From IMG/VR virus record IMGVR_UViG_3300011008_000003: a stretch of 64,000 nt of DNA; one strand, written 5' to 3'. Positions within the stretch are counted from its first letter, which is position 1. The number at the start of each line of letters is the position of its first letter. The notes below the pieces were generated by a model. It was not told where the DNA came from and did not search any database. It saw only the letters and a list, made by a program, of their open reading frames with translations. The translations under genes and the position numbers were made by a program. This document shows, in pieces, positions 1-34,974 of this stretch. The DNA is from a virus. Lineage: Duplodnaviria > Heunggongvirae > Uroviricota > Caudoviricetes.

Positions 1-485
1 AGTGCCGTCATGGCGGCGCTGATATTTTCGAATTCTTTTCTGCTGGTACAGAGTTCTTCGATTGACGTGCCGGTTTCCTTGGACTGTTTTAGGAGTCTTT
101 TGAGCCGGAGTCTTTCGTTCTGGGGAACATGGATAAGGTCATCGTGGTTGAAGATATATGAGTTGATTGACTGTCGGATCCACCATACGGCATAGGAAAT
201 GAACTTGTTGCCTGTATCGGGCGAGAAGGAATCGATAGCCCTCATGAGGCCTGTGACTCCGATATTGATAAGTTCGCCCCTTGTGGAGTTATTGGCTGAG
301 TACTTGTTGGCGACCGATATGACGAATGGAATATGGTTGTCGGCTATCCTTTTCTTGGCTTCTTTCTTTATGGTCATTGAAATTTTCGGATTCTTGATGA
401 TTTTAAAGTATGCCAATTCGGTTTCTTCTGGCATACGTTTCCTATTGGCCAAGTCCGCCAAAAAGTTCTTATAGCTGCGCTCCAT
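1..485 (-). CDS. Phage-encoded sigma70-family RNA polymerase sigma factor (5' part; runs off window edge)
   Basis: Manual translation from ATG 485: MERSYKNFLADL...ADNHIPFVISVANKY...ELINIGVTGLMRAIDSFSPDTGNKFISYAVWWIRQSI = sigma70 region 2; AAGGA RBS; not in ORF track. Confidence 0.9.
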   Translation of the reverse strand, partial: MERSYKNFLADLANRKRMPEETELAYFKIIKNPKISMTIKKEAKKRIADNHIPFVISVANKYSANNSTRGELINIGVTGLMRAIDSFSPDTGNKFISYAVWWIRQSINSYIFNHDDLIHVPQNERLRLKRLLKQSKETGTSIEELCTSRKEFENISAAMTA

Positions 486-544
486 ATACAATTTCCTTAT
501 ATCATATGCCCGTGGATATATGTCGGGCTGTTCCTAATAGATCA

Positions 545-645: not shown

Positions 646-1491
646 TTAGACTGCAACGGGCATCTTTATGGCCGGGTGGCACTTGTAATCGATTAATTCG
701 AAATCGGTATAATGCCAGTCTTCTATAGTCCAGCCAGGTTTTGTATTAAGGATTTTGACTGACGGGAGAGGATAAGGTTCCCTGGTCAGCTGTTCCTTTA
801 CGCCGTCGATCTGGTTGACATAGATGTGGGAATCGGCGAAGAATCCGATAAGCTTGCCCGGTTTCAACCCGGTTTCGGTACAGATCAGGGTCAGCAGCAT
901 GGCGTACGATGCTATGTCGTAAGGCACGCCGATAGGGAAATCGGAGCTTCTCTGGTTCCACAATAAATCTACGTATCCTTCATTTGACAGGAGCTGGAAG
1001 CAGTAATGGCACGGCGGGAGAGCCATTTCATTAAGCTGTTGCGGGTTCCAGGCAGACACGATCATGCGGCGATCCGTAGGATTCGTCTTCAACGTATTGA
1101 TGGCGTTCCTGAGCTGGTTGATGCCGGAATCGTTGAAATTGGTCCACTGATAGCCATAAATCTTGCCGAGATCGTCTTCTTCGGCCATCTTTTTCTGGGT
1201 TTCCGGGTCTGTAGAATAGGGAATCTTACTTGGATTACACCAGGAATCCCATATATGGCAGTTACGATCCTGGAGAAATTTCTTGGAATTCCCGCCGTGA
1301 ATAAACATTTCGAGTTCCGCGCAGATGTTCTTGAGGCCCATTTTCTTGGTAGTCATGAGCGGGAACTTGCCGGTTGACATGTCGAATTCCAGCATGGTAC
1401 CCGAAATCGATAAAGTATCTACGCCGGTACGGTTGTGTTTGGTCCTGCCTTCGTAGAGAATTCTCTTAAGTACGTCGATATACTGTTTCAT
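646..1491 (-). CDS. thyA: Thymidylate synthase family enzyme (Asp at the E. coli N177-equivalent position)
   Basis: RTGVDT, ELEMFI, MALPPCH catalytic Cys, QRSSD, DSHIY motifs. Confidence 0.93.
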   Translation of the reverse strand: MKQYIDVLKRILYEGRTKHNRTGVDTLSISGTMLEFDMSTGKFPLMTTKKMGLKNICAELEMFIHGGNSKKFLQDRNCHIWDSWCNPSKIPYSTDPETQKKMAEEDDLGKIYGYQWTNFNDSGINQLRNAINTLKTNPTDRRMIVSAWNPQQLNEMALPPCHYCFQLLSNEGYVDLLWNQRSSDFPIGVPYDIASYAMLLTLICTETGLKPGKLIGFFADSHIYVNQIDGVKEQLTREPYPLPSVKILNTKPGWTIEDWHYTDFELIDYKCHPAIKMPVAV

Positions 1492-2007
1492 TTATTTCTC
1501 CATTGCCTTGATTAGGCTATCAATAAACCTTTGTCTTACGATGTTCTGGCCGGCATAGTGGTTGCCTTCGTTGACCTGAATCATCATCTTGTTAAGTTTG
1601 GATTCCTCGAACTTCTTTATAAAGTCTTCCTGTTCTTCCTGTCTACGGCTGAAGTCATGAGACTTGCCGTCGTCCTGCATGATATTGAAATCCGTAGTAT
1701 AGAGAAGTATAAAGTATGTATTCTTTAAGTTATCCCTGTACTCGTCTTCCATAATCCTTACATAGTTCGGGCTGTAGTCCCTATATCTCGGGGCGTAGAC
1801 CAGTTCGTCCCAGTGGCCTCTGTTGAACACGACATGATCCTGGTACGCCAGTGTCATGAAGTAATCCAGGTACTGTGACTTGGACCAGGTTAACGGATCC
1901 GAATCCTTCGGCGGCTTGTCCAGGTGGATTTCCTTATAGCCTTTCAGAATCCGTCTAATAAAAGTATTCTTACCAATTCTATCTATTCCAGTAATCACGA
2001 AATTCAT
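1492..2007 (-). CDS. dNMP/thymidylate kinase-like P-loop protein
   Basis: GIDRIGKNT P-loop, FNRGHWDELVY motif; abuts thyA. Confidence 0.75.
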   Translation of the reverse strand: MNFVITGIDRIGKNTFIRRILKGYKEIHLDKPPKDSDPLTWSKSQYLDYFMTLAYQDHVVFNRGHWDELVYAPRYRDYSPNYVRIMEDEYRDNLKNTYFILLYTTDFNIMQDDGKSHDFSRRQEEQEDFIKKFEESKLNKMMIQVNEGNHYAGQNIVRQRFIDSLIKAMEK

Positions 2008-3038
2008 TAAGCTTGTTCCTTGTAAGTAGTGTATAAATCCATAAAGCCTTCGTATATCTTGGCCTTGTCTACCGTGGTATTGTACTGTTCTAGGTAGTTA
2101 TTGAACAATGTCACGATGTTAAGGTCACCGGTATCTATGTCGTCGTCTTCCGATTCGGCTGTCAGGTAGTTGATGTTTACCGGGTATGCGGGTTTCAACT
2201 TCTCGAGTTTCTGAACATAGAGTTCGACTTTCTTGGTCTGGTCGAAGTATTCAGGCGGAATGTCGAGGTCGACCACGTTATTGGCGATCATGTTCATGTC
2301 GGCATTCGGATAGGTATGCTTGGTGAACTTGATAGATACTCTGTTCTCTACGAATTCGATTTCGCCTGACCTTATGTCCAGAATATGATAGCCTCTTTGG
2401 CCGTCCCTGTCGATTCGGGTAAGCTGGTAAGGCGCGCCGAGATAAGAAATCGATTTACCCTGTTCATATTTCCTGGTTACCTTGGTATGGTAATGACCAG
2501 TATATACCGTATTGACATGATCCAGAACATACGCTGCGGTCAGGCCGACATCGCTTGGACGCCCGCCGCCGACATCGAAAGTCATAATATCGGCATGCAT
2601 GAAGGCGTAATCGTACTTGTTATTACCGAAAATATCAGAAGTATAGTCGGTAATCCACGGCTGGAAACGTATTGTTCTACCGTCGATATATTCTGTAACG
2701 GCATCTTCATATACTGTGACATTCGGCAAAAGGGAGAGAATCTTTAAAGAATTCACACCCAGGTCAGTGTTATAGAACATGTCGTGGTTGCCGACGATGA
2801 TACGGATATTGAAATCCTTTAAGACATTCTTGAAGAGATCGATGACTCGGTTGATTGTCGGTAAAGTTATCGCTTTTCTCTGGTCGAATACGTCTCCCAA
2901 AATCCAAATATCATTAATATTTCGTTTTTTTAAATCCACTACAAGTTGTTCAGTGAAAAACTTATACTGAGAATTAAAAAAAGTTTCATCATCGCGTTTT
3001 ATACCGATATGCAAATCAGCTAGCATTGCAATTTTCAT
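2007..3038 (-). CDS. Recombination endonuclease subunit, T4 gp47 / Mre11-SbcD-like
   Basis: DLHIG, GDVFD, GNHD, GHYH metallophosphoesterase motifs; linked to gp46. Confidence 0.93.
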   Translation of the reverse strand: MKIAMLADLHIGIKRDDETFFNSQYKFFTEQLVVDLKKRNINDIWILGDVFDQRKAITLPTINRVIDLFKNVLKDFNIRIIVGNHDMFYNTDLGVNSLKILSLLPNVTVYEDAVTEYIDGRTIRFQPWITDYTSDIFGNNKYDYAFMHADIMTFDVGGGRPSDVGLTAAYVLDHVNTVYTGHYHTKVTRKYEQGKSISYLGAPYQLTRIDRDGQRGYHILDIRSGEIEFVENRVSIKFTKHTYPNADMNMIANNVVDLDIPPEYFDQTKKVELYVQKLEKLKPAYPVNINYLTAESEDDDIDTGDLNIVTLFNNYLEQYNTTVDKAKIYEGFMDLYTTYKEQA

Positions 3039-3984
3039 AAATAATACCCAAAATATATTTTTTAACCTGTTCTTTAGTATTTAACCAATCATATTCTTTA
3101 ATATGTATTAATTTTACATTTAACTGTTGACATTTTTCATCTTTTTCTTTATCGCGTTTCCATATATCGGTTGCCAACAAATTACCTCTTATAATATCAT
3201 CTTCCTTATAAAATCTAGGGTCAGCATGCCAATATGTTCCGTCAAATTCAAATCCTAAGTTTAAATCTGGTAAATATATATCTATTTCTTTTCTTTTTAA
3301 AATTGATGTCGTATTTTCTAATATTATACCATGATAGTTTTCTTTAATAAAATTAAATAATTCTTTCTCCAAATAACTATAACCAGTATAATGCATATCT
3401 TTCATACATTTAGGGCAAAATACTTTATTATATCGTTTAATAATCCTATTAAATTGCGCAGTAGATATTTTGAAATTTGTATTGCATTCATTACAATATA
3501 AAAAATACCAATATTTTGTTTTACTTATACAAACAATATTATTTTGATTTAATATTGTATTATATTTTTTAATTGTATTATTTTTTCTAGTAGTAATATA
3601 TTTTTCTTGTATTATAGCAGATTGTGCAGAACTATCTGCATTATATCTTTTTCTAAATGTTTGTCGTGCCTTATCTTTTATTAATTTAGACTGCCTTGGA
3701 TTTTTAACTCCATATTTTTTAAAACATGTAGCTTCTGCTTCTTGTTTAAAACTTGGTGATAAAAATTTACATGTACCAGAACACCATTTTTTATATCCTT
3801 TTATAAGACTTACAAATTTTGTAGGCTTATCACAATATAAACATTTACCGTCCTTTTCATTTTTTAAATATAAATCATAATATTCTTTTATTGTTATATT
3901 TTTATGACATAAACGTATATGATTACTTAATGAACGTAAATTATTACATTCTTTATTACATATTTTACATATAATTTTATACAT
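3016..3984 (-). CDS. Putative free-standing homing endonuclease (Zn fingers + C-terminal Vsr/DUF559-like nuclease)
   Basis: CKIC..H..H, CLYC, CNEC/CPKC, KKYGVKNP, EIDIYLPDLNLGFEFDGTYWH; much more AT-rich than neighbours; overlaps gp47 start. Confidence 0.75.
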   Translation of the reverse strand: MYKIICKICNKECNNLRSLSNHIRLCHKNITIKEYYDLYLKNEKDGKCLYCDKPTKFVSLIKGYKKWCSGTCKFLSPSFKQEAEATCFKKYGVKNPRQSKLIKDKARQTFRKRYNADSSAQSAIIQEKYITTRKNNTIKKYNTILNQNNIVCISKTKYWYFLYCNECNTNFKISTAQFNRIIKRYNKVFCPKCMKDMHYTGYSYLEKELFNFIKENYHGIILENTTSILKRKEIDIYLPDLNLGFEFDGTYWHADPRFYKEDDIIRGNLLATDIWKRDKEKDEKCQQLNVKLIHIKEYDWLNTKEQVKKYILGIIYENCNAS

Positions 3985-3993
3985 AAAAATTTA

Positions 3994-4248
3994 TTAAGTG
4001 TTTTTAGCCTTGGCTACTGCGTCCTTGAATTCTTCGTAGACGACGATCTTGCCGTCTATCATAGGACAAATATAGAATTTTACCGGGTCGCCGTTGTGAA
4101 TTTTGTATTTAAACTGAATTTTCGTATTCGGCAGGTAGAATTCCTTAATCTCCGATTCGAAGAGATCGACTTCCTTGCACTTGAAGCCGGCGCGTTCGCA
4201 ATACAGGATTGCGTCATTGAATGTAATCTGAATCCATTTATTATCCAT
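3994..4248 (-). CDS. Hypothetical protein
   Basis: Coupled to gp46 stop, AAGGT RBS. Confidence 0.75.
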   Translation of the reverse strand: MDNKWIQITFNDAILYCERAGFKCKEVDLFESEIKEFYLPNTKIQFKYKIHNGDPVKFYICPMIDGKIVVYEEFKDAVAKAKNT

Positions 4249-6004
4249 AAATTACCTTTAAGTTACTGTATCCGTGTTCTTTCTTGATTTCTATCTTGGA
4301 CGCCACTTCTACGTTCATTTCATTAAGCTTATGCGAAATGATATAGAAACCCAATTTCTTTTTCTTGTTCTTGGCAATCATATTCTTTAAAGTAGAAATG
4401 AAGCCCGTGATACCGGCCGCGTCGATGTTCTGGTCGAGAAGCTCGTCGATCATGCACATGTTGCAAGACCAGTTACTGATGATTCGGCTGATGTCGAAGA
4501 AGCTGAGAAGGATAGCCATGTCGATTCTGGTACGCTCGCCTGCAGAGAAACCCTCGTATGATCTCGGCAGGAGTTCGACAGTAAAGGATTCTTCCATCTG
4601 TTCGTTGAACGTCAGTTCGGTATTCTTAAGCTCGAAATCCTTTAAGTATGCGTTGACAGTCTTATTAAGGATTCCGGTAAGCTTACGGAAGAAGTACGTC
4701 TTGATGCCGTCGTCACCGAGGATGTTTACCAGTTCGGTATCGACCTTGATTTCTTCTTCCAGGCCGTCAATGTCGTGCTTTAACGCATCCGAAGCTGCTT
4801 CGAGCTCGGTAATCCTGTTTTCAGCATCAGACGTGTCGGCTGGACAGGTCTTATTGTTTTCCGCGTCCAGATTATCAAGTTCCTTGTCGAGTTCCGACTG
4901 TGCAGAGTTCTTAGCAACTTCCTCGCCTCGTATCTTTGTCTTAATCGTCTGAATGAATTCCTGCGCTTTGCGGTATTCATCGATCGCAGCGCGGTACGTA
5001 TTGAACTTTTCCTGGAGAGCCGGGATAATCTTCTTTTCGTTTTCATCATATTCTTCCTTCATCTGGTCAAGATGCTTCTTTGCATGTCCTTCATCCAAAG
5101 GCGAGCCGCATACCGGACAGGTCGGCTTCTTCGAAAGCTTTTCCAGCGTACTCGAAATCCGTTCCATAGTGGAATAGGCCATACCGATTTGTCTGTCAAT
5201 ACTAGACACCTCGTTGGCATCAGGACACTCTGGAAGCTTTTCAGTCAGCTCGACGATCTTCTTGTTCGCCATCTCGATATTGCTGTCGGCCTTCTTGATT
5301 CTGTCTTGGCAAGCCTTGATAGAATTGTTAATACGCTGTAAGTTCGCCGTTTTTATCTCGTTGAAACTGTTAATATATTCATTAAGCTTTTTCACATGGG
5401 ACTGGTTGTCTACAATCTGTCTCGTGATTCCATTAAGCTCTGTGGTCTTCAACGCCTGTTCGGAAGCCTTTAACGATTTTCTCTTCTTGACATCCTTGCA
5501 CATAAGGCCGAGGACGTCGATATTAAAGATATTTTCGATTAAGGTTCTTTTCTCGCCGATAGACAGGCTGAGGAACGGCTTGTTGTTGGTAACGCCCATG
5601 GCGACGATATTCTTGAAGAGACGGAAGTTAATCCCGAGCAGCTTGTCGATTTCGTCCTGATTAAGCTTCTTGGAAGAAAGTAGATCCAGTTCCTGTCCGT
5701 TCTTGAGGAATTCGAACTTGGCCGGCTTTAATCCCCTGGTAATTGTATAAAGGTCTTTTCCGATTTTGAAGTCAACCGTGACCTCTAGTCCCTTCCCGTT
5801 CTGTACGTTGACGAGCTCGCCCATCTTGATGTCTCGGTACGGTTTGCCGAAGAGGGCGAATGTCAGAGCGTCCAGGATGGTAGACTTTCCGGCTCCGTTG
5901 ACGGCCATGATTGTATTAAATCCCGGTTGGAATTCAATCTCCGCGCCGGCAGCGCCATAGGACATGATATTAGAAAAACTAAGTTTCTTAAATTCTACAA
6001 ACAT
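4241..6004 (-). CDS. Recombination ATPase, T4 gp46 / Rad50-SbcC-like
   Basis: NGAGKS Walker A, coiled coil with CPVC zinc hook, FSAGE signature, IDE Walker B, IISH. Confidence 0.95.
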   Translation of the reverse strand: MFVEFKKLSFSNIMSYGAAGAEIEFQPGFNTIMAVNGAGKSTILDALTFALFGKPYRDIKMGELVNVQNGKGLEVTVDFKIGKDLYTITRGLKPAKFEFLKNGQELDLLSSKKLNQDEIDKLLGINFRLFKNIVAMGVTNNKPFLSLSIGEKRTLIENIFNIDVLGLMCKDVKKRKSLKASEQALKTTELNGITRQIVDNQSHVKKLNEYINSFNEIKTANLQRINNSIKACQDRIKKADSNIEMANKKIVELTEKLPECPDANEVSSIDRQIGMAYSTMERISSTLEKLSKKPTCPVCGSPLDEGHAKKHLDQMKEEYDENEKKIIPALQEKFNTYRAAIDEYRKAQEFIQTIKTKIRGEEVAKNSAQSELDKELDNLDAENNKTCPADTSDAENRITELEAASDALKHDIDGLEEEIKVDTELVNILGDDGIKTYFFRKLTGILNKTVNAYLKDFELKNTELTFNEQMEESFTVELLPRSYEGFSAGERTRIDMAILLSFFDISRIISNWSCNMCMIDELLDQNIDAAGITGFISTLKNMIAKNKKKKLGFYIISHKLNEMNVEVASKIEIKKEHGYSNLKVIYG

Positions 6005-6928: not shown

Positions 6929-7015
6929 ATTAAGGATTTCCAAATAATTCCATTAAGGTTTACATTTTTATTAAAAATTGCTATATTTTAACCAGTCTTA
7001 TAAAAAGGATTAAAT

Positions 7016-8635
7016 ATGTCAAAAGAAATTTTGTTCGACGAAAATGCTCGTGTTAAGCTGATGGCCGGCGTAAATATCCTTGCCGATGCCGTATGTAGTA
7101 CTCTCGGTCCTTCTGGCCGTAATGTCATGTTGTCCAACGGTGTAGTCACCAAGGACGGCGTGTCGGTCGCCAAGGATATCAGTATGGAAGATCCGTTTGT
7201 TGATAAGGGTGTTCAGATGGCTGTAGCCGCCGCTTCCAAGACCAACGATGTCGCCGGTGACGGTACGACCTCCAGTGTCTGTCTCAGCCGCGCCATTGCC
7301 CGTGAAGGATTAAAGATTGTTGCAGCCGGCGCCAATCCGACTGAAGTAAAGGCCGGAATCGATAAAGCTGTTTCTGCTATCGTCGACCAGCTCGATAAGA
7401 ATTCCATTAAGGTAAACGACAAGAAGTCCATTGCACAGGTGGGTACTATCTCCGCTAACGGCGATACCGAAATCGGTAATATGATCGCCGATGCCATGGA
7501 CAAGGTTGGTCCGGACGGTGTTATCACTGTCGAGGAATCCAACACTGCAGAAACCGTTCTCGATGTCGTAGACGGTATGCAGTTCAATAACGGTTACCTC
7601 TCCCCGTATTTTGTAACTGACCAGGAAAAGATGGTTGCCGTTCTCGAAAACCCGGCCATCCTTATGTACGAACATAAGATTTCCAGTGTACAGGAATTGC
7701 TCCCGCATCTTGAATATATCGGCCAGTCCGGTAAGCCGTTGCTGATTATCGCAGAAGATGTTGACTCCGAAGCGCTCGCTATGTTGGTGTTGAATAAGCT
7801 CCGTGGCGCTCTAAAGGTCGTAGCTGTCAAGGCTCCTGGCTACGGCGAATCCAGGAAGAACAATCTCCGTGACATCGCGCTGCTTACCGGCGGCCACGTT
7901 GTTTCCGATGAAACAGGTGTTAAGCTTGCCGATGCAGTCACCCAGGAAATCCTTGGTTATGCCAAGACTGTTAAGGTTTCCCGTGACCATACCATTATTG
8001 TCGACGGTGCTGCTGAAAAGGAATCCGTAGACCAGCATGTCCAGACTCTTAAGGCTCAGCTCGCCTCTACCGAATCCGAATATGACAAGGCTAACCTTGC
8101 AGAACGTATTGCACGTCTGGCTGGCGGTGTCGCTGTCATTAAGGTCGGTGCAGCCACTGAAGTAGAAATGAAGGAAAAGAAAGACCGAGTGGACGATGCT
8201 CTCCATGCAACGAAGGCTGCTGTCGAAGAAGGTATTGTCGCAGGCGGCGGAACTGCCCTAATCCGTGCGGCATCCGCTGTCAAGGTCACTGGAGCTACAG
8301 CTGACGAAGAATCCGGTATTAAGATTATCATGAAGGCAGCCGAAGAACCGGCACGCCAGATTGTTAAGAATACCGGCAAGGAACCGTCCGTTGTGGTTAA
8401 CGAAATCATGAAGCGTTCCGGCAACGAAGGCTACAATGCCAAGACAGGTACGTTCGAAGACCTGGTTGAATCCGGTGTTATCGACCCGGTTAAGGTCACC
8501 AAGAACGCTCTTAAGAATGCCGCTTCTATCGCATCTATGATTCTGACGACTAACTGCGTTATCGTTGAGAAGAAGGAAGACAAGGAATGTTCTTGTCACC
8601 AGCCGCAGATGCCGATGATGCCCGGCATGATGTAA
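7016..8635 (+). CDS. groEL: Group I chaperonin GroEL (Cpn60)
   Basis: TLGP, TKDGVSVAK, GDGTT, GYLSPYF, GGVAVIKVGA, EEGIVAGGG; PMMPGMM tail; own TTTACA-N17-TATATT promoter. Confidence 0.97.
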   Translation: MSKEILFDENARVKLMAGVNILADAVCSTLGPSGRNVMLSNGVVTKDGVSVAKDISMEDPFVDKGVQMAVAAASKTNDVAGDGTTSSVCLSRAIAREGLKIVAAGANPTEVKAGIDKAVSAIVDQLDKNSIKVNDKKSIAQVGTISANGDTEIGNMIADAMDKVGPDGVITVEESNTAETVLDVVDGMQFNNGYLSPYFVTDQEKMVAVLENPAILMYEHKISSVQELLPHLEYIGQSGKPLLIIAEDVDSEALAMLVLNKLRGALKVVAVKAPGYGESRKNNLRDIALLTGGHVVSDETGVKLADAVTQEILGYAKTVKVSRDHTIIVDGAAEKESVDQHVQTLKAQLASTESEYDKANLAERIARLAGGVAVIKVGAATEVEMKEKKDRVDDALHATKAAVEEGIVAGGGTALIRAASAVKVTGATADEESGIKIIMKAAEEPARQIVKNTGKEPSVVVNEIMKRSGNEGYNAKTGTFEDLVESGVIDPVKVTKNALKNAASIASMILTTNCVIVEKKEDKECSCHQPQMPMMPGMM

Positions 8636-22877: not shown

Positions 22878-24248
22878 ATGATTACATACAATCTGTCCAC
22901 CGAAGAGAAATTCGAAAAGATGCAGCAACAAATGTATCTGATTTACCCCTCGCTCGGTTCGTTCTACAACATGTGCAACAAGCGTGCACTTCCGAAAGAA
23001 TCTAAGGTGACGCTCCGACTCAACGTCTGCGAAGGTTCCGCTCCGATCATTGAGTATACCGAAGACTTCATGAAGACTCTGAGCGTCGAAACCTTTACGA
23101 TTCTGATGAGCATCGAGCTCTTCCGTTTGCTCTTGCATCATCCGACGACTCGTATGCAGATTAGCCGTTCCCTCACGGTTCAGGCTTCCAACTTCATCTG
23201 CAGTGACTCCAAAATTCGTAACTTCATCATGCCGGCACACCTTAAGGATGCTTTCCCGGACATCGCTGAAATTCAGGCTATGGAGCCCAGCTTCAACGTC
23301 AATGACGACCTTTATCTTGAAAAAGTCTACCGAATTCTTGAAAAGAATTCCCAAGACCAGAATCAGAATGGCCAGGGTCAAGGTCAAGGACAAGGCCAAG
23401 GTCAAAGCCAGGGTAACGGAGACGGTGACGGTGACGGCCAAGGTCAAGGTCAGAATGACCCGAACGGTGACAACCAAGATCAGGATGGTGACGGCGATGG
23501 TGACGGCAAGTCCGACGAACAGAAGGAAAACGACAGCCTCAAGCGTCACTTCTCTAGCCAGCAGTCTGAAAAGAACTCTGAAGGCTGGGGTGAAAACGAA
23601 CTGGTTGACGCTCAGGTTTCTGGCGAAGTCAACAAGCGTCAGTTGTCTGATTGGTCCGACGTCGGTAACGGCATGACCAAGATGATCCTGAAGGCCAACG
23701 AACTTCAGTTTGACCCCTGGTCCGTCATTAAGCGTTTCGCAACTTCCGTGTTCTCCGACTTCATCTCGTTCACTCGCATGCGTCCTAACCGCCGTCTTCC
23801 GGATTGGACTGGTGTTCTTCCGGGTAAGCGTCATGCCATGAAGGCTAAGGTACTCTTTGCGATTGACTGCAGTGGTTCCATGGCTGAGAGCGAAATCGAA
23901 CGAGCCTGCGGAGTCGTCAACTCGGCCCTCAAGCATGCTGAAACGTGGTATTGCTTCTGGGACTGCAAGTGTTCTGACTTCACTCAGAAGCGTTCCAAGA
24001 CTTCGGACTTCGACGGTCTCGGTGGTGGCGGCACCAACCCTGACTGCGTAATCAAGAAGCTCGAGGAATCCAAGGAACACTTCGACGGCCTCGTGTTCAT
24101 CACGGACTGCTACTTCGACTGGCAGCAGCCGAAAGGAAAGCACAAGATTTTCATCCTGCACACCAAGGATGCGGGTGATCCTCCGGCTTGGTGCAAGTGG
24201 CATCTGGGCATGGATGACATCGAAAAGATTCAGAAGTCTCGCTCTTAA
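22878..24248 (+). CDS. VWA-domain protein with N-terminal metallopeptidase-like domain (DUF2201-type), MoxR partner
   Basis: RPNRR, MIDAS DCSGS, GGGT, FITD; GQ/GD-repeat linker. Confidence 0.88.
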   Translation: MITYNLSTEEKFEKMQQQMYLIYPSLGSFYNMCNKRALPKESKVTLRLNVCEGSAPIIEYTEDFMKTLSVETFTILMSIELFRLLLHHPTTRMQISRSLTVQASNFICSDSKIRNFIMPAHLKDAFPDIAEIQAMEPSFNVNDDLYLEKVYRILEKNSQDQNQNGQGQGQGQGQGQSQGNGDGDGDGQGQGQNDPNGDNQDQDGDGDGDGKSDEQKENDSLKRHFSSQQSEKNSEGWGENELVDAQVSGEVNKRQLSDWSDVGNGMTKMILKANELQFDPWSVIKRFATSVFSDFISFTRMRPNRRLPDWTGVLPGKRHAMKAKVLFAIDCSGSMAESEIERACGVVNSALKHAETWYCFWDCKCSDFTQKRSKTSDFDGLGGGGTNPDCVIKKLEESKEHFDGLVFITDCYFDWQQPKGKHKIFILHTKDAGDPPAWCKWHLGMDDIEKIQKSRS

Positions 24249-24707: not shown

Positions 24708-24939
24708 ACGTTTAATAAAATTTAATTGACAACATTTAAAAATTTTTCTATCTTATAAGGCATGTTGAATATGGAATATATGAAAATTGACTTTTTTGCG
24801 AGCGATTCCAACAAGCCGAGCGCTTCCGACGAAAATCACTCAAAGATAATTGTTTACAAGTCAATTCGAAATTTCTATATTTAACCACGTAGCAAGTCGC
24901 TACATCGTTCAACAACTCAGAAAACCTAAGAGGTATCTA

Positions 24940-26094
24940 ATGAATATCAAGCAGCTCACCAACGCAATCAAGTTCATCCCCGCCCGCAAGTCCATCATGC
25001 TCAAGGGCACCCACGGTATCGGCAAGACCGAATGGGTCACTCAGCTCGCCAAGGACCTCGGCCTCAAGCTCGTCATCTGGCACGCCAGCCATGCCGCCGA
25101 CGCCGGCGACATCACAGGTCTTCCTTTCAAGGTCACGGAAACTGACACCGAAACTGGTGAAACCCGCGAAGTGACCAAGTTCGCCAAGCCGCAGTGGATG
25201 ATCCAGAACAAGCCGGTTCTCCTCTTGCTCGACGAAATCAACCGTGGCCTCAGCATTGCATTGAATGCAATCATGCAGCTCACCAACAACGGAACGTACG
25301 ACGACATTACCCTTCCTGAGGGTAGCCGAATCTTCGCCTGTATCAACCCGGAAGAGGACGGCAAGTACGACGTCGGTACGATGGACGCCGCACAGCTCGA
25401 CCGCTTCGCCATCTACGAATTCAAGCCGACCGTCGAGGAATGGGTCGACTGGGCAATCAAGGCTGGTCTGGATTCTCGTGTTGTCCAGTACATCAACACG
25501 CACCACACCATGTTGGACCCGTACTCCAACAACGAACTTGTGAAGTCCGTTCAGGGTAAGGATTGCGGTGTTCTTCCGTCTCGCCGTGCTTGGGAATGCG
25601 TTTCCAAGACCATTCAGAACGGCGACAAGGAACGTGCCTGGGAAGGTCAGGAAGGTATCAACCTGCTCACCGAAATCATGAACGGTATTGTCGGTACCGG
25701 TGCAACTCTGGACTTCATCGCTTACTTCAAGTCCGCTGGTAACAGCCTCAACCCGAAGACTCTGATGGAACTCCCGGAAATCACCGACAAGGAACGCAAG
25801 GCAATCGCAAAGCTCTGCAAGACCGACTTCCCGAACGCTACCAAGCTCGTGGGTGGCTGTGTCCTCTTCCTCAAGGAACACAACGACGAACTTGCGACTT
25901 CCGTCGGTGCTCAGTGGTCCCACAACTTCTACGACATTCTGGCGGCTATGACCAAGGACGCCCAGATTGCCTCCGTGAAGGACTGTGTGATTGGGGCTGT
26001 CAAGGCTCACGAACCGTGGGCTCTGAACCTCAGCAAGCACGAACATCGCTTGAAGGAACTCTACAAGGCCGCTCTGGTTGTCCGCGACCTTTAA
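24940..26094 (+). CDS. MoxR-like AAA+ ATPase (start corrected from 24850)
   Basis: GTHGIGKT, LLLLDEINR, ACINP, AQLDRF, PSRRAW; AAGAGGT RBS. Confidence 0.9.
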   Translation: MNIKQLTNAIKFIPARKSIMLKGTHGIGKTEWVTQLAKDLGLKLVIWHASHAADAGDITGLPFKVTETDTETGETREVTKFAKPQWMIQNKPVLLLLDEINRGLSIALNAIMQLTNNGTYDDITLPEGSRIFACINPEEDGKYDVGTMDAAQLDRFAIYEFKPTVEEWVDWAIKAGLDSRVVQYINTHHTMLDPYSNNELVKSVQGKDCGVLPSRRAWECVSKTIQNGDKERAWEGQEGINLLTEIMNGIVGTGATLDFIAYFKSAGNSLNPKTLMELPEITDKERKAIAKLCKTDFPNATKLVGGCVLFLKEHNDELATSVGAQWSHNFYDILAAMTKDAQIASVKDCVIGAVKAHEPWALNLSKHEHRLKELYKAALVVRDL

Positions 26095-30090: not shown

Positions 30091-30174
30091 GGCCTTGTGG
30101 CGGAATAGGTAGACGCTGCAGACTTAAAATCTGTTGGGAGATTTCCCGTGTCGGTTCGAGTCCGACCTTGGTCA
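30091..30174 (+). tRNA. tRNA-Leu(TAA)
   Basis: GTGGCGGAATAGGTAGACGC D-arm, GCAGA-CTTAAAA-TCTGT anticodon arm, long variable arm, GGTTCGAGTCC; two U-U mismatches in acceptor stem; no CCA. Confidence 0.88.
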
Positions 30175-34900: not shown

Positions 34901-34974
34901 GGACAGGTAGCTCAATAGGTTAGAGCAGCGGACTCATAACCCGCCGGTTCTCGGTTCAAGTCCGAGCCTGTCCA
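34901..34974 (+). tRNA. tRNA with CAT anticodon (non-initiator; probably Ile2, possibly elongator Met)
   Basis: GGACAGG/CCTGTCC acceptor, TAGCTCAATAGGTTAGAGC, CT-CAT-AA loop, GGTTCAAGTCC; G1-C72 paired; own promoter. Confidence 0.9.

Follow-up and report, generated by a model that had tools for sequence, protein, structure and literature searches.

The stretch of DNA analysed here, called the window throughout, is 64,000 nucleotides long and comes from a virus of the Caudoviricetes (IMG/VR record IMGVR_UViG_3300011008_000003). Near its left end, two adjoining genes on the minus strand encode a thymidylate synthase (ThyA)-family enzyme and a P-loop nucleotide kinase. The ThyA-family enzyme has Asp at the position where ordinary ThyA has the Asn that selects deoxyuridine monophosphate (dUMP). 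The pair is predicted to methylate deoxycytidine monophosphate (dCMP) and to phosphorylate the 5-methyl-dCMP so formed. The features of the two genes are as follows.

646..1491, minus strand: ThyA-family enzyme of 281 amino acids, predicted dCMP C5-methyltransferase (5-methyl-dCMP synthase), a full-length match to PF00303.
916..918, minus strand: codon GAC of Asp192, equivalent to E. coli ThyA Asn177, the pyrimidine-specificity residue; placed by sequence and alignment.
1009..1011, minus strand: codon TGC of the catalytic Cys161 (E. coli Cys146); placed by alignment and sequence.
1018-1020, minus strand: Leu158 (equivalent of Leu143), flanking Cys161.
1006-1008, minus strand: His162 (equivalent of His147), flanking Cys161.
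1492..2007, minus strand: thymidylate-kinase-like P-loop nucleotide kinase of 171 amino acids, predicted from its fold and gene linkage to be a 5-methyl-dCMP kinase.
1963..1989, minus strand: P-loop of the kinase, G-I-D-R-I-G-K-N-T, residues 7-15, recognised by motif conservation.

The protein encoded at 646-1491 matched the Pfam family Thymidylat_synt (PF00303) with E=4.9e-93 over profile positions 1-266 of 266, and passed the NCBIfam thymidylate synthase model TIGR03284 with 267 bits against a cut-off of 108. In HMMER comparisons with the PDB it was 42-46% identical to solved thymidylate synthases, and the N229 mutant structures 1njc and 1njd were among its best sequence matches. On the minus strand, positions 890-960 translate as W N Q R S S D F P I G V P Y D I A S Y. 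Asp192 stands opposite the Asn of 'vpfnias' in the HMMER alignments, and in a MAFFT alignment its column contains E. coli N177, the Asp of the Xp12 enzyme and the Asp of T4 gp42. Thus, the original prediction was borne out in locating an Asn-to-Asp change (GAC) at the pyrimidine-specificity residue and in stating that T4 dCMP hydroxymethylase has Asp there. Residue 177 decides between uracil and cytosine (PMC13326640 and earlier work cited there). The Asn177 by which ThyA (EC 2.1.1.45) prefers uracil over cytosine is lacking in the window protein, which has Asp192 instead.

The active site was then compared with that of E. coli ThyA. Over 16 catalytic, phosphate-binding and folate-site positions the window enzyme reads REWWYRRLCHRSD-D-HY and the E. 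coli enzyme REWWYRRLCHRSD-N-HY. Cys146, Arg21, Arg126, Arg127, Arg166, Ser167, Glu58, Trp80, Trp83, Tyr94, Asp169, His207 and Tyr209 are the same as in E. coli in the alignment, and the PPCH motif (Cys161, His162) is kept, as expected from the earlier description of the remainder as an ordinary methylating ThyA. A 2026 paper (PMC13326640) lists the twelve residues that lie no more than 6 A from C5 of dUMP. Over these, the window enzyme differs from that of E. coli solely at 168 and 177, and residue 168 (Ser in the window enzyme, Cys in E. coli) is variable across the family. The enzyme has Leu158 at position 143, Asp184 at position 169 and a complete -PVAV C-terminus. In a published correlation an acidic residue at 143 accompanies hydroxymethyl products, and Asn at 169 accompanies 5-hydroxy-dCMP (PMC13326640). 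The window enzyme has neither, the pattern of a methyl product, although Xp12 itself has Asn143. By these published criteria, the combination of Asp177, Leu143, Asp169 and the -PVAV tail predicts reductive methylation of dCMP.

The same 281-residue protein, identical throughout, recurs among the gene calls of 21 contigs, which stem from several ENA and JGI samples. Of the 120 homologues ranked best in the database search (63-99% identity), many of them on 160-430 kb contigs, 118 share the Asp and two carry Asn. The identical protein on 21 contigs and the retention of Asp in 119 of 121 homologues exclude chance or a read error as the origin of the residue; a read error had been named as what would refute the original prediction, and Asp conservation in related phages as a means of checking it. 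A search of GenBank for a phage near-identical at the DNA level found none.

Phylogenetic analysis placed the window ThyA in a clade of 122 sequences, 120 of them with Asp (support 0.85), nested among canonical ThyAs of the Asn type. A wider tree was built from the 150 nearest 50%-identity cluster representatives and references. By parsimony the 150-representative tree required ~15 Asn/Asp changes, and Xp12 formed a remote branch. Common descent with the Xp12 and PaMx74 enzymes was not supported by the tree, in which Xp12 is distant from the window clade. Since the clade is nested in Asn-type ThyAs, and Xp12 is both remote and different at positions that the window enzyme has kept, the window lineage, as judged from sequence, acquired its Asp independently of Xp12 and from an ordinary ThyA.

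Many of the close ThyA homologues contain an in-frame insertion of 150-270 amino acids directly after the Tyr94-Gly95 equivalent. The bearers are P0058-P0119 (428-432 amino acids) and P0121 and P0125-P0135 (466-550 amino acids), for example L074:1038-2441. The precomputed Pfam list of P0125 includes I-HmuI_NUMOD-like, and the Tyr94-Gly95 site looks like a hot spot for insertions of the homing-endonuclease or intron type. The 45 insertion-type family members also have Met in place of Gln165.

In the operon to which the ThyA gene belongs, the stop codon of the kinase gene abuts the ThyA start with zero gap, and the kinase start overlaps the stop of a SbcD/Mre11-like gene by one base. An AlphaFold2 model of the kinase, built on 13 homologues, had a predicted local distance difference test (pLDDT) score of 92.3. 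When the model was searched with Foldseek, YorR (2axp, 3kb2) was the best match and thymidylate kinases of many organisms came next, with template modelling (TM) scores of 0.6-0.68. The probability was 1.00 for YorR and for >30 thymidylate kinase chains (TM 0.5-0.68), which assigns the protein to the nucleoside monophosphate kinase fold. Gly7, Asp9, Gly12, Lys13 and Thr15, together with several other motifs, are invariant among the 13 homologues. At the sequence level the protein stayed below the Pfam cut-offs (Thymidylate_kin at 18.3 bits vs 27, AAA_28 also sub-threshold), matched no NCBIfam family, and found a sole PDB sequence match in SPbeta YorR (E=0.0016). Its family is a narrow one, for which the search detected 19 homologues. 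The claim of an adjacent deoxynucleoside monophosphate kinase was therefore right in kind, as to P-loop and thymidylate-kinase fold, but the protein stays below the cut-offs of the Pfam and NCBIfam models. The gene was found directly upstream of an Asp-type ThyA in all window-group members examined (L001, L031-33, L036-39 and L070).

To what extent the kinase belongs with the Asp enzyme is indicated by a sister clade in which both residue types occur. The two Asn-type homologues, P0071 and P0117, group together as a single clade (support 0.966) within a set of Asp-type sequences (supports 1.0 and 0.997). The Asp-type sisters carry GAT at the specificity codon and the Asn-type clade carries AAT, which identifies the change as a GAT-to-AAT reversion. 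In the Asp-type sisters L046, L075 and L076 an intact kinase homologue of 225-243 amino acids overlaps or abuts the ThyA start. In the Asn-type L044, in contrast, the kinase is a pseudogene: its N-terminal part lies in another frame, the P-loop Lys has become Arg, ~45 residues are missing, and a 97-residue C-terminal open reading frame (ORF) is all that remains. In the Asn-type L047 the kinase is gone and 107 bases separate the flanking genes. The Asp state and the kinase have co-evolved in this clade. Loss of the kinase upon reversion to Asn is what would be expected if it serves a non-canonical product, thymidylate (dTMP) itself being handled by the host thymidylate kinase. These observations suggest that the kinase became dispensable once the enzyme had reverted to Asn, an indication that is suggestive, not statistical. 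Together with the gene linkage, the loss beside the Asn revertants points to 5-methyl-dCMP as the probable kinase substrate. The pathway put forward originally, from dCMP to 5-methyl-dCMP with phosphorylation by the neighbouring gene product, thus gains comparative support from the fate of the kinase beside Asp and Asn enzymes.

In the same sister clade the Asp-type ThyA gene overlaps a dihydrofolate reductase (DHFR) gene by ATGA, a translational coupling which fits an enzyme that oxidises folate and yields dihydrofolate. Sister-clade phages of both types also have a dUTPase-fold gene with a weak match to dCTP deaminase (dCTP, deoxycytidine triphosphate) beside a family B DNA polymerase gene (L046:17034-17582 and L044:16392-16970). 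No gene of the dUTPase fold was found in G001.

A second ThyA, ThyX, deaminase or dCTPase was sought in the 64-kb window and in its relatives. The complete relative searched was G001, a 424,163-bp IMG/VR sequence bounded by terminal repeats, the ThyA of which is 78% identical to that of the window. G001 has one PF00303 gene (Asp-type), one DHFR gene and one PF00383 gene of the dCMP-deaminase family. ThyX was sought in G001 and not found. The search that the original prediction had called for, for a second ThyA or ThyX or a dCTPase, thus returned in G001 a single ThyA, no ThyX and no recognisable dCTPase. No C5 DNA methyltransferase was found in G001. The TET search of G001 was also empty, a weak result as the TET control rang in no genome. 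Of the two Nudix genes of G001, one is NadM-like and the other (147 amino acids) shows its closest, though weak, resemblance to a pyrimidine deoxynucleoside triphosphate diphosphatase, far below the NCBIfam cut-off. The genes surrounding the G001 deaminase were not informative, and the gene order downstream of ThyA differs between the window and G001. In the window itself there is no deaminase, no DHFR and no dCTP-clearing pyrophosphohydrolase, and among 20 of its larger ORFs no nucleotide-metabolism or DNA-modification family and no transferase was recognised.

Across 13 IMG/VR records ThyA is always single. A PF00383 deaminase is present in the Asp-type G001 and G007 and in the Asn-type G003 and G011, with no clean Asp/Asn pattern, and no PF00383 gene was found in the near-complete Asp-type genomes G002 (88%) and G009 (99%). 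In unrelated Asp-type lineages the classical companion genes do occur: a PRA-PH pyrophosphohydrolase lies directly downstream of ThyA in L021 (L021:10986-11705), and a dCMP-deaminase-family gene lies ~1 kb upstream, in a T4-like context, in L073 (L073:616-1203).

We consider it likely that 646-1491 encodes a reductive dCMP C5-methyltransferase, the 5-methyl-dCMP from which is phosphorylated by the linked kinase and incorporated into the phage DNA. In such a pathway the single Asn-to-Asp change would shift the pyrimidine preference from dUMP to dCMP, and the reductive methyl-transfer machinery would all be retained. The enzyme would convert dCMP and 5,10-methylene-tetrahydrofolate to 5-methyl-dCMP and dihydrofolate. 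The thymidylate-kinase-like protein encoded upstream would then produce the diphosphate, and the host nucleoside diphosphate kinase would produce 5-methyl-dCTP. The phage polymerase would insert this nucleotide in place of some or all cytosine, so that virion DNA would be expected to contain 5-methylcytosine. Where a lineage also has a gene of the dCMP-deaminase family, some of the pool may be converted by deamination to thymidine nucleotides.

Several observations weigh against this assignment. The co-loss of kinase and Asp is a single evolutionary event with no replicated correlation. The kinase family was not found within 10 kb of the Asp-type ThyAs in L002, L011, L021, L022, L072 and L073, and the pairing is therefore specific to the window clade. 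No MazG, PRA-PH or dUTPase-fold dCTPase was found in G001, which would mean full cytosine replacement without the usual companion. G001 is moreover a distant proxy, with 35% GC vs 43% in the window and patchy synteny. The Xp12 enzyme is ~30% identical to the window ThyA and sits on a remote branch of the tree. It has Asn143, Pro147, Phe83 and another C-terminus, where the window enzyme has retained Leu, His, Trp and -PVAV, the canonical states.

The same genes could serve a thymidylate route that starts from cytosine, in which 5-methyl-dCMP is made and phosphorylated mainly to supply thymidine triphosphate (dTTP) through a 5-methylcytosine-selective deaminase, with little 5-methylcytosine in the DNA. 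In G001 the Asp-type enzyme is the sole ThyA, there is no ThyX, one PF00383 deaminase is present, and a dCTPase that would clear dCTP was not found; the published 5-methylcytosine-selective deaminase takes triphosphates only, hence a kinase would be required (bioRxiv 10.1101/2024.12.05.627091). Such a route nevertheless appears unlikely. Without a PF00383 gene the product cannot serve thymidylate supply in the Asp-type G002 and G009, no deaminase is encoded in the window, and host ThyA is available. In addition, 5-methyl-dCTP is described as a good DNA polymerase substrate in general (PMC9594043), and the pool should enter DNA. We regard as slightly less probable still that the protein is a working thymidylate synthase, specific for dUMP or accepting both dUMP and dCMP, that tolerates the Asp, and that its neighbour is an ordinary thymidylate kinase boosting dTTP. 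Such an enzyme would agree with the canonical state of the remaining catalytic and folate-site residues, with the score of 267 bits vs 108 at TIGR03284 and with thymidylate kinases as the nearest solved folds of the kinase after YorR, and the DHFR coupling is equally compatible with dTMP synthesis. Yet Asn is near-universal at 177 in dUMP enzymes, and Asp has become fixed throughout a clade of 120 members; in published data it is a marker of contigs with modified cytosine (PMC8670742). An ordinary thymidylate kinase should also have been retained, not lost, upon reversion to Asn.

A dCMP hydroxymethylase or another C5-modifying enzyme whose product (5-hydroxymethyl- or 5-hydroxy-dCMP) feeds hypermodification appears very unlikely. 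Asp177 is common to T4 gp42 and the 5-hydroxy-dCMP synthases, and some of the many jumbo-phage genes without an assigned function could encode transferases. However, the window enzyme departs from the hydroxymethylases of the T4 gp42 type (EC 2.1.2.8) in having Leu, not Asp or Glu, at 143 and in possessing the -PVAV tail missing from gp42. It departs from the 5-hydroxy-dCMP synthases of the RB69/DLP3 type in having Asp, not Asn, at 169. Further arguments against such products are that DHFR is coupled to the Asp-type gene of sister-clade phages, that no transferase was recognised among 20 large window ORFs, and that neither a C5 DNA methyltransferase nor TET was found in G001, the TET blank being weak since its control rang nowhere. 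Synthesis of 5-methyl-dCMP for incorporation into DNA is thus the reading that we retain.

Palindrome avoidance was considered as a proxy for unmodified cytosine and was dropped as uninformative. In the window, 27% of 6-mer palindromes are below 0.7 observed/expected vs 6% of non-palindromes. The measure carries no information on modification because Xp12, with fully 5-methylcytosine DNA, shows the same pattern (29% vs 6%). GATC is strongly under-represented, at 0.59 observed/expected in the window and 0.51 in G001; GTAC is at 0.58 in G001.

The other features of the window provide the context of the two genes.

2007..6004, minus strand: close-packed block upstream of the kinase, in an order also found in relatives; context, not part of the modification pathway.
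2007-3038, minus strand: SbcD/Mre11-like gene.
3016-3984, minus strand: homing-endonuclease-like gene (322 amino acids, phrog_3339, weak DUF7487), overlapping the start of the SbcD/Mre11-like gene.
3994-4248, minus strand: ORF of 84 amino acids.
4241-6004, minus strand: Rad50/SbcC-like gene.
3-491, minus strand: sigma-70-family gene directly downstream of ThyA.
572-544, minus strand: promoter-like site TTTACA-N17-TATATT with an extended -10 TG, ahead of the sigma gene.
7016-8635, plus strand: GroEL/Cpn60-family chaperonin of 539 amino acids, divergent from the Rad50-like gene and conserved in relatives (PF00118 in L031, L036 and L070).
22878-24248 and 24850-26094, plus strand: neighbouring genes for a putative metallopeptidase-domain protein (DUF2201_N) and an AAA_5/MoxR-like ATPase, with homologues in G001 at 354-357 kb.
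30091-30174 and 34901-34974, plus strand: tRNA genes Leu(TAA) and Met(CAT), surrounded by small ORFs without an assigned function.

The homing-endonuclease gene of 3016-3984 is missing from L036 and L038, two strains with the identical ThyA, and in L070 a DUF7487 gene is elsewhere, beside the Cpn60 gene. This strain-variable presence and location indicates that the gene is a mobile insertion. The sigma-70-family gene encodes 287 amino acids in L036 and L039, with Sigma70_r2 and r4. The hexamer pair of the promoter-like site recurs at 6959-6987 on the plus strand, ahead of the Cpn60 gene.

If the assignment is correct, 5-methylcytosine is a building block of the DNA of a widespread group of rumen and gut phages of 300-430 kb. 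This would bear on their encounters with restriction and modification-dependent defences, and on how well enzymatic or bisulfite methods recover and read their DNA. Annotations as 'thymidylate synthase' would need rereading, the window protein being named an ordinary ThyA by the NCBI model. The sister pair with Asp and Asn, with and without the kinase, offers a natural control for kinase function. A wider idea is put forward tentatively: 5-methylcytosine DNA in gut and rumen jumbo phages may be evolutionarily switchable, with ThyA and dCMP methylase interconverted by one G/A transition in a single codon and the kinase recruited with the Asp state and decaying after reversion. The ~15 Asn/Asp changes among the 165 nearest ThyA clusters would then mean that cytosine replacement originated repeatedly and apart from the Xp12 lineage, in the present case with no known dCTPase.

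A functional precedent is Xp12, in which all cytosine is replaced by 5-methylcytosine through a thymidylate-synthase homologue (PMC8670742; bioRxiv 10.1101/2024.12.05.627091). The Xp12 dCMP C5-methyltransferase (EC 2.1.1.54; relatives PaMx74 and AXL1) has, like the window enzyme, the ThyA fold, the catalytic Cys and Asp177. In Xp12 it is the sole ThyA-family gene and occurs with DHFR and a dCMP-deaminase-family gene, the same set as in the window's relative G001. The Xp12 genes for DHFR, deaminase, synthase and a hydrolase form one cassette, in which AXL1 has a nucleotide pyrophosphohydrolase. The window synthase, unlike that of Xp12, has a kinase as its partner within a block of Rad50/Mre11 genes, and the search for a dCTPase was negative.

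The L. casei N229D and E. coli N177D mutants methylate dCMP (Liu and Santi 1992; Hardy and Nalivaika 1992, as cited in PMC8670742). They are canonical ThyAs with a single Asn-to-Asp change. As first-shell differences from E. coli are confined to 168 and 177, the window enzyme can be seen as a natural equivalent of these engineered proteins, and it is more similar to them than to the Xp12 enzyme. It differs from them in being natural, long fixed and accompanied by a co-evolved partner kinase.

Asp177 has also been found to mark virome contigs with modified cytosine (MetaGPA, PMC8670742). Given the T4 gp1 kinase, the Xp12 enzyme and five of the seven Asp177 enzymes tested from metagenomes produced 5-methyl-dC in E. 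coli, and a linked deaminase converts 5-methyl-dCTP to dTTP (both bioRxiv 10.1101/2024.12.05.627091). The diagnostic residue and the predicted product are common to these enzymes and that of the window. The metagenomic set came from sewage and coastal viromes, was picked for a deaminase within 3 kb and differs at position 147, whereas the window clade belongs to rumen and gut jumbo phages, has a kinase as the linked gene and, in the window ThyA, keeps His147.

In T4, gp42 and gp1 follow the logic proposed here, with Asp at the specificity position and a synthase, a phage kinase and a polymerase acting together. However, in gp42, whose identity to E. coli ThyA is ~26%, Asp occupies the Leu143 position, residue 147 is Thr and the C-terminal tail is missing. 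Structures of gp1 were not among the 50 best fold matches of the window kinase, which is thymidylate-kinase/YorR-like. Like the thymidylate kinases and the YorR protein of B. subtilis SPbeta, the window kinase has a P-loop kinase fold (TM 0.6-0.7), at sequence scores below the Pfam cut-offs. Thus, the enzyme type and its underlying biochemistry are already known from Xp12, the N177D/N229D mutants and the metagenomic Asp177 enzymes. What appears to be new, on comparison of these sequences, is an independently derived and almost purely single-substitution Asp lineage in jumbo phages, with a partner kinase that tracks the Asp/Asn state.

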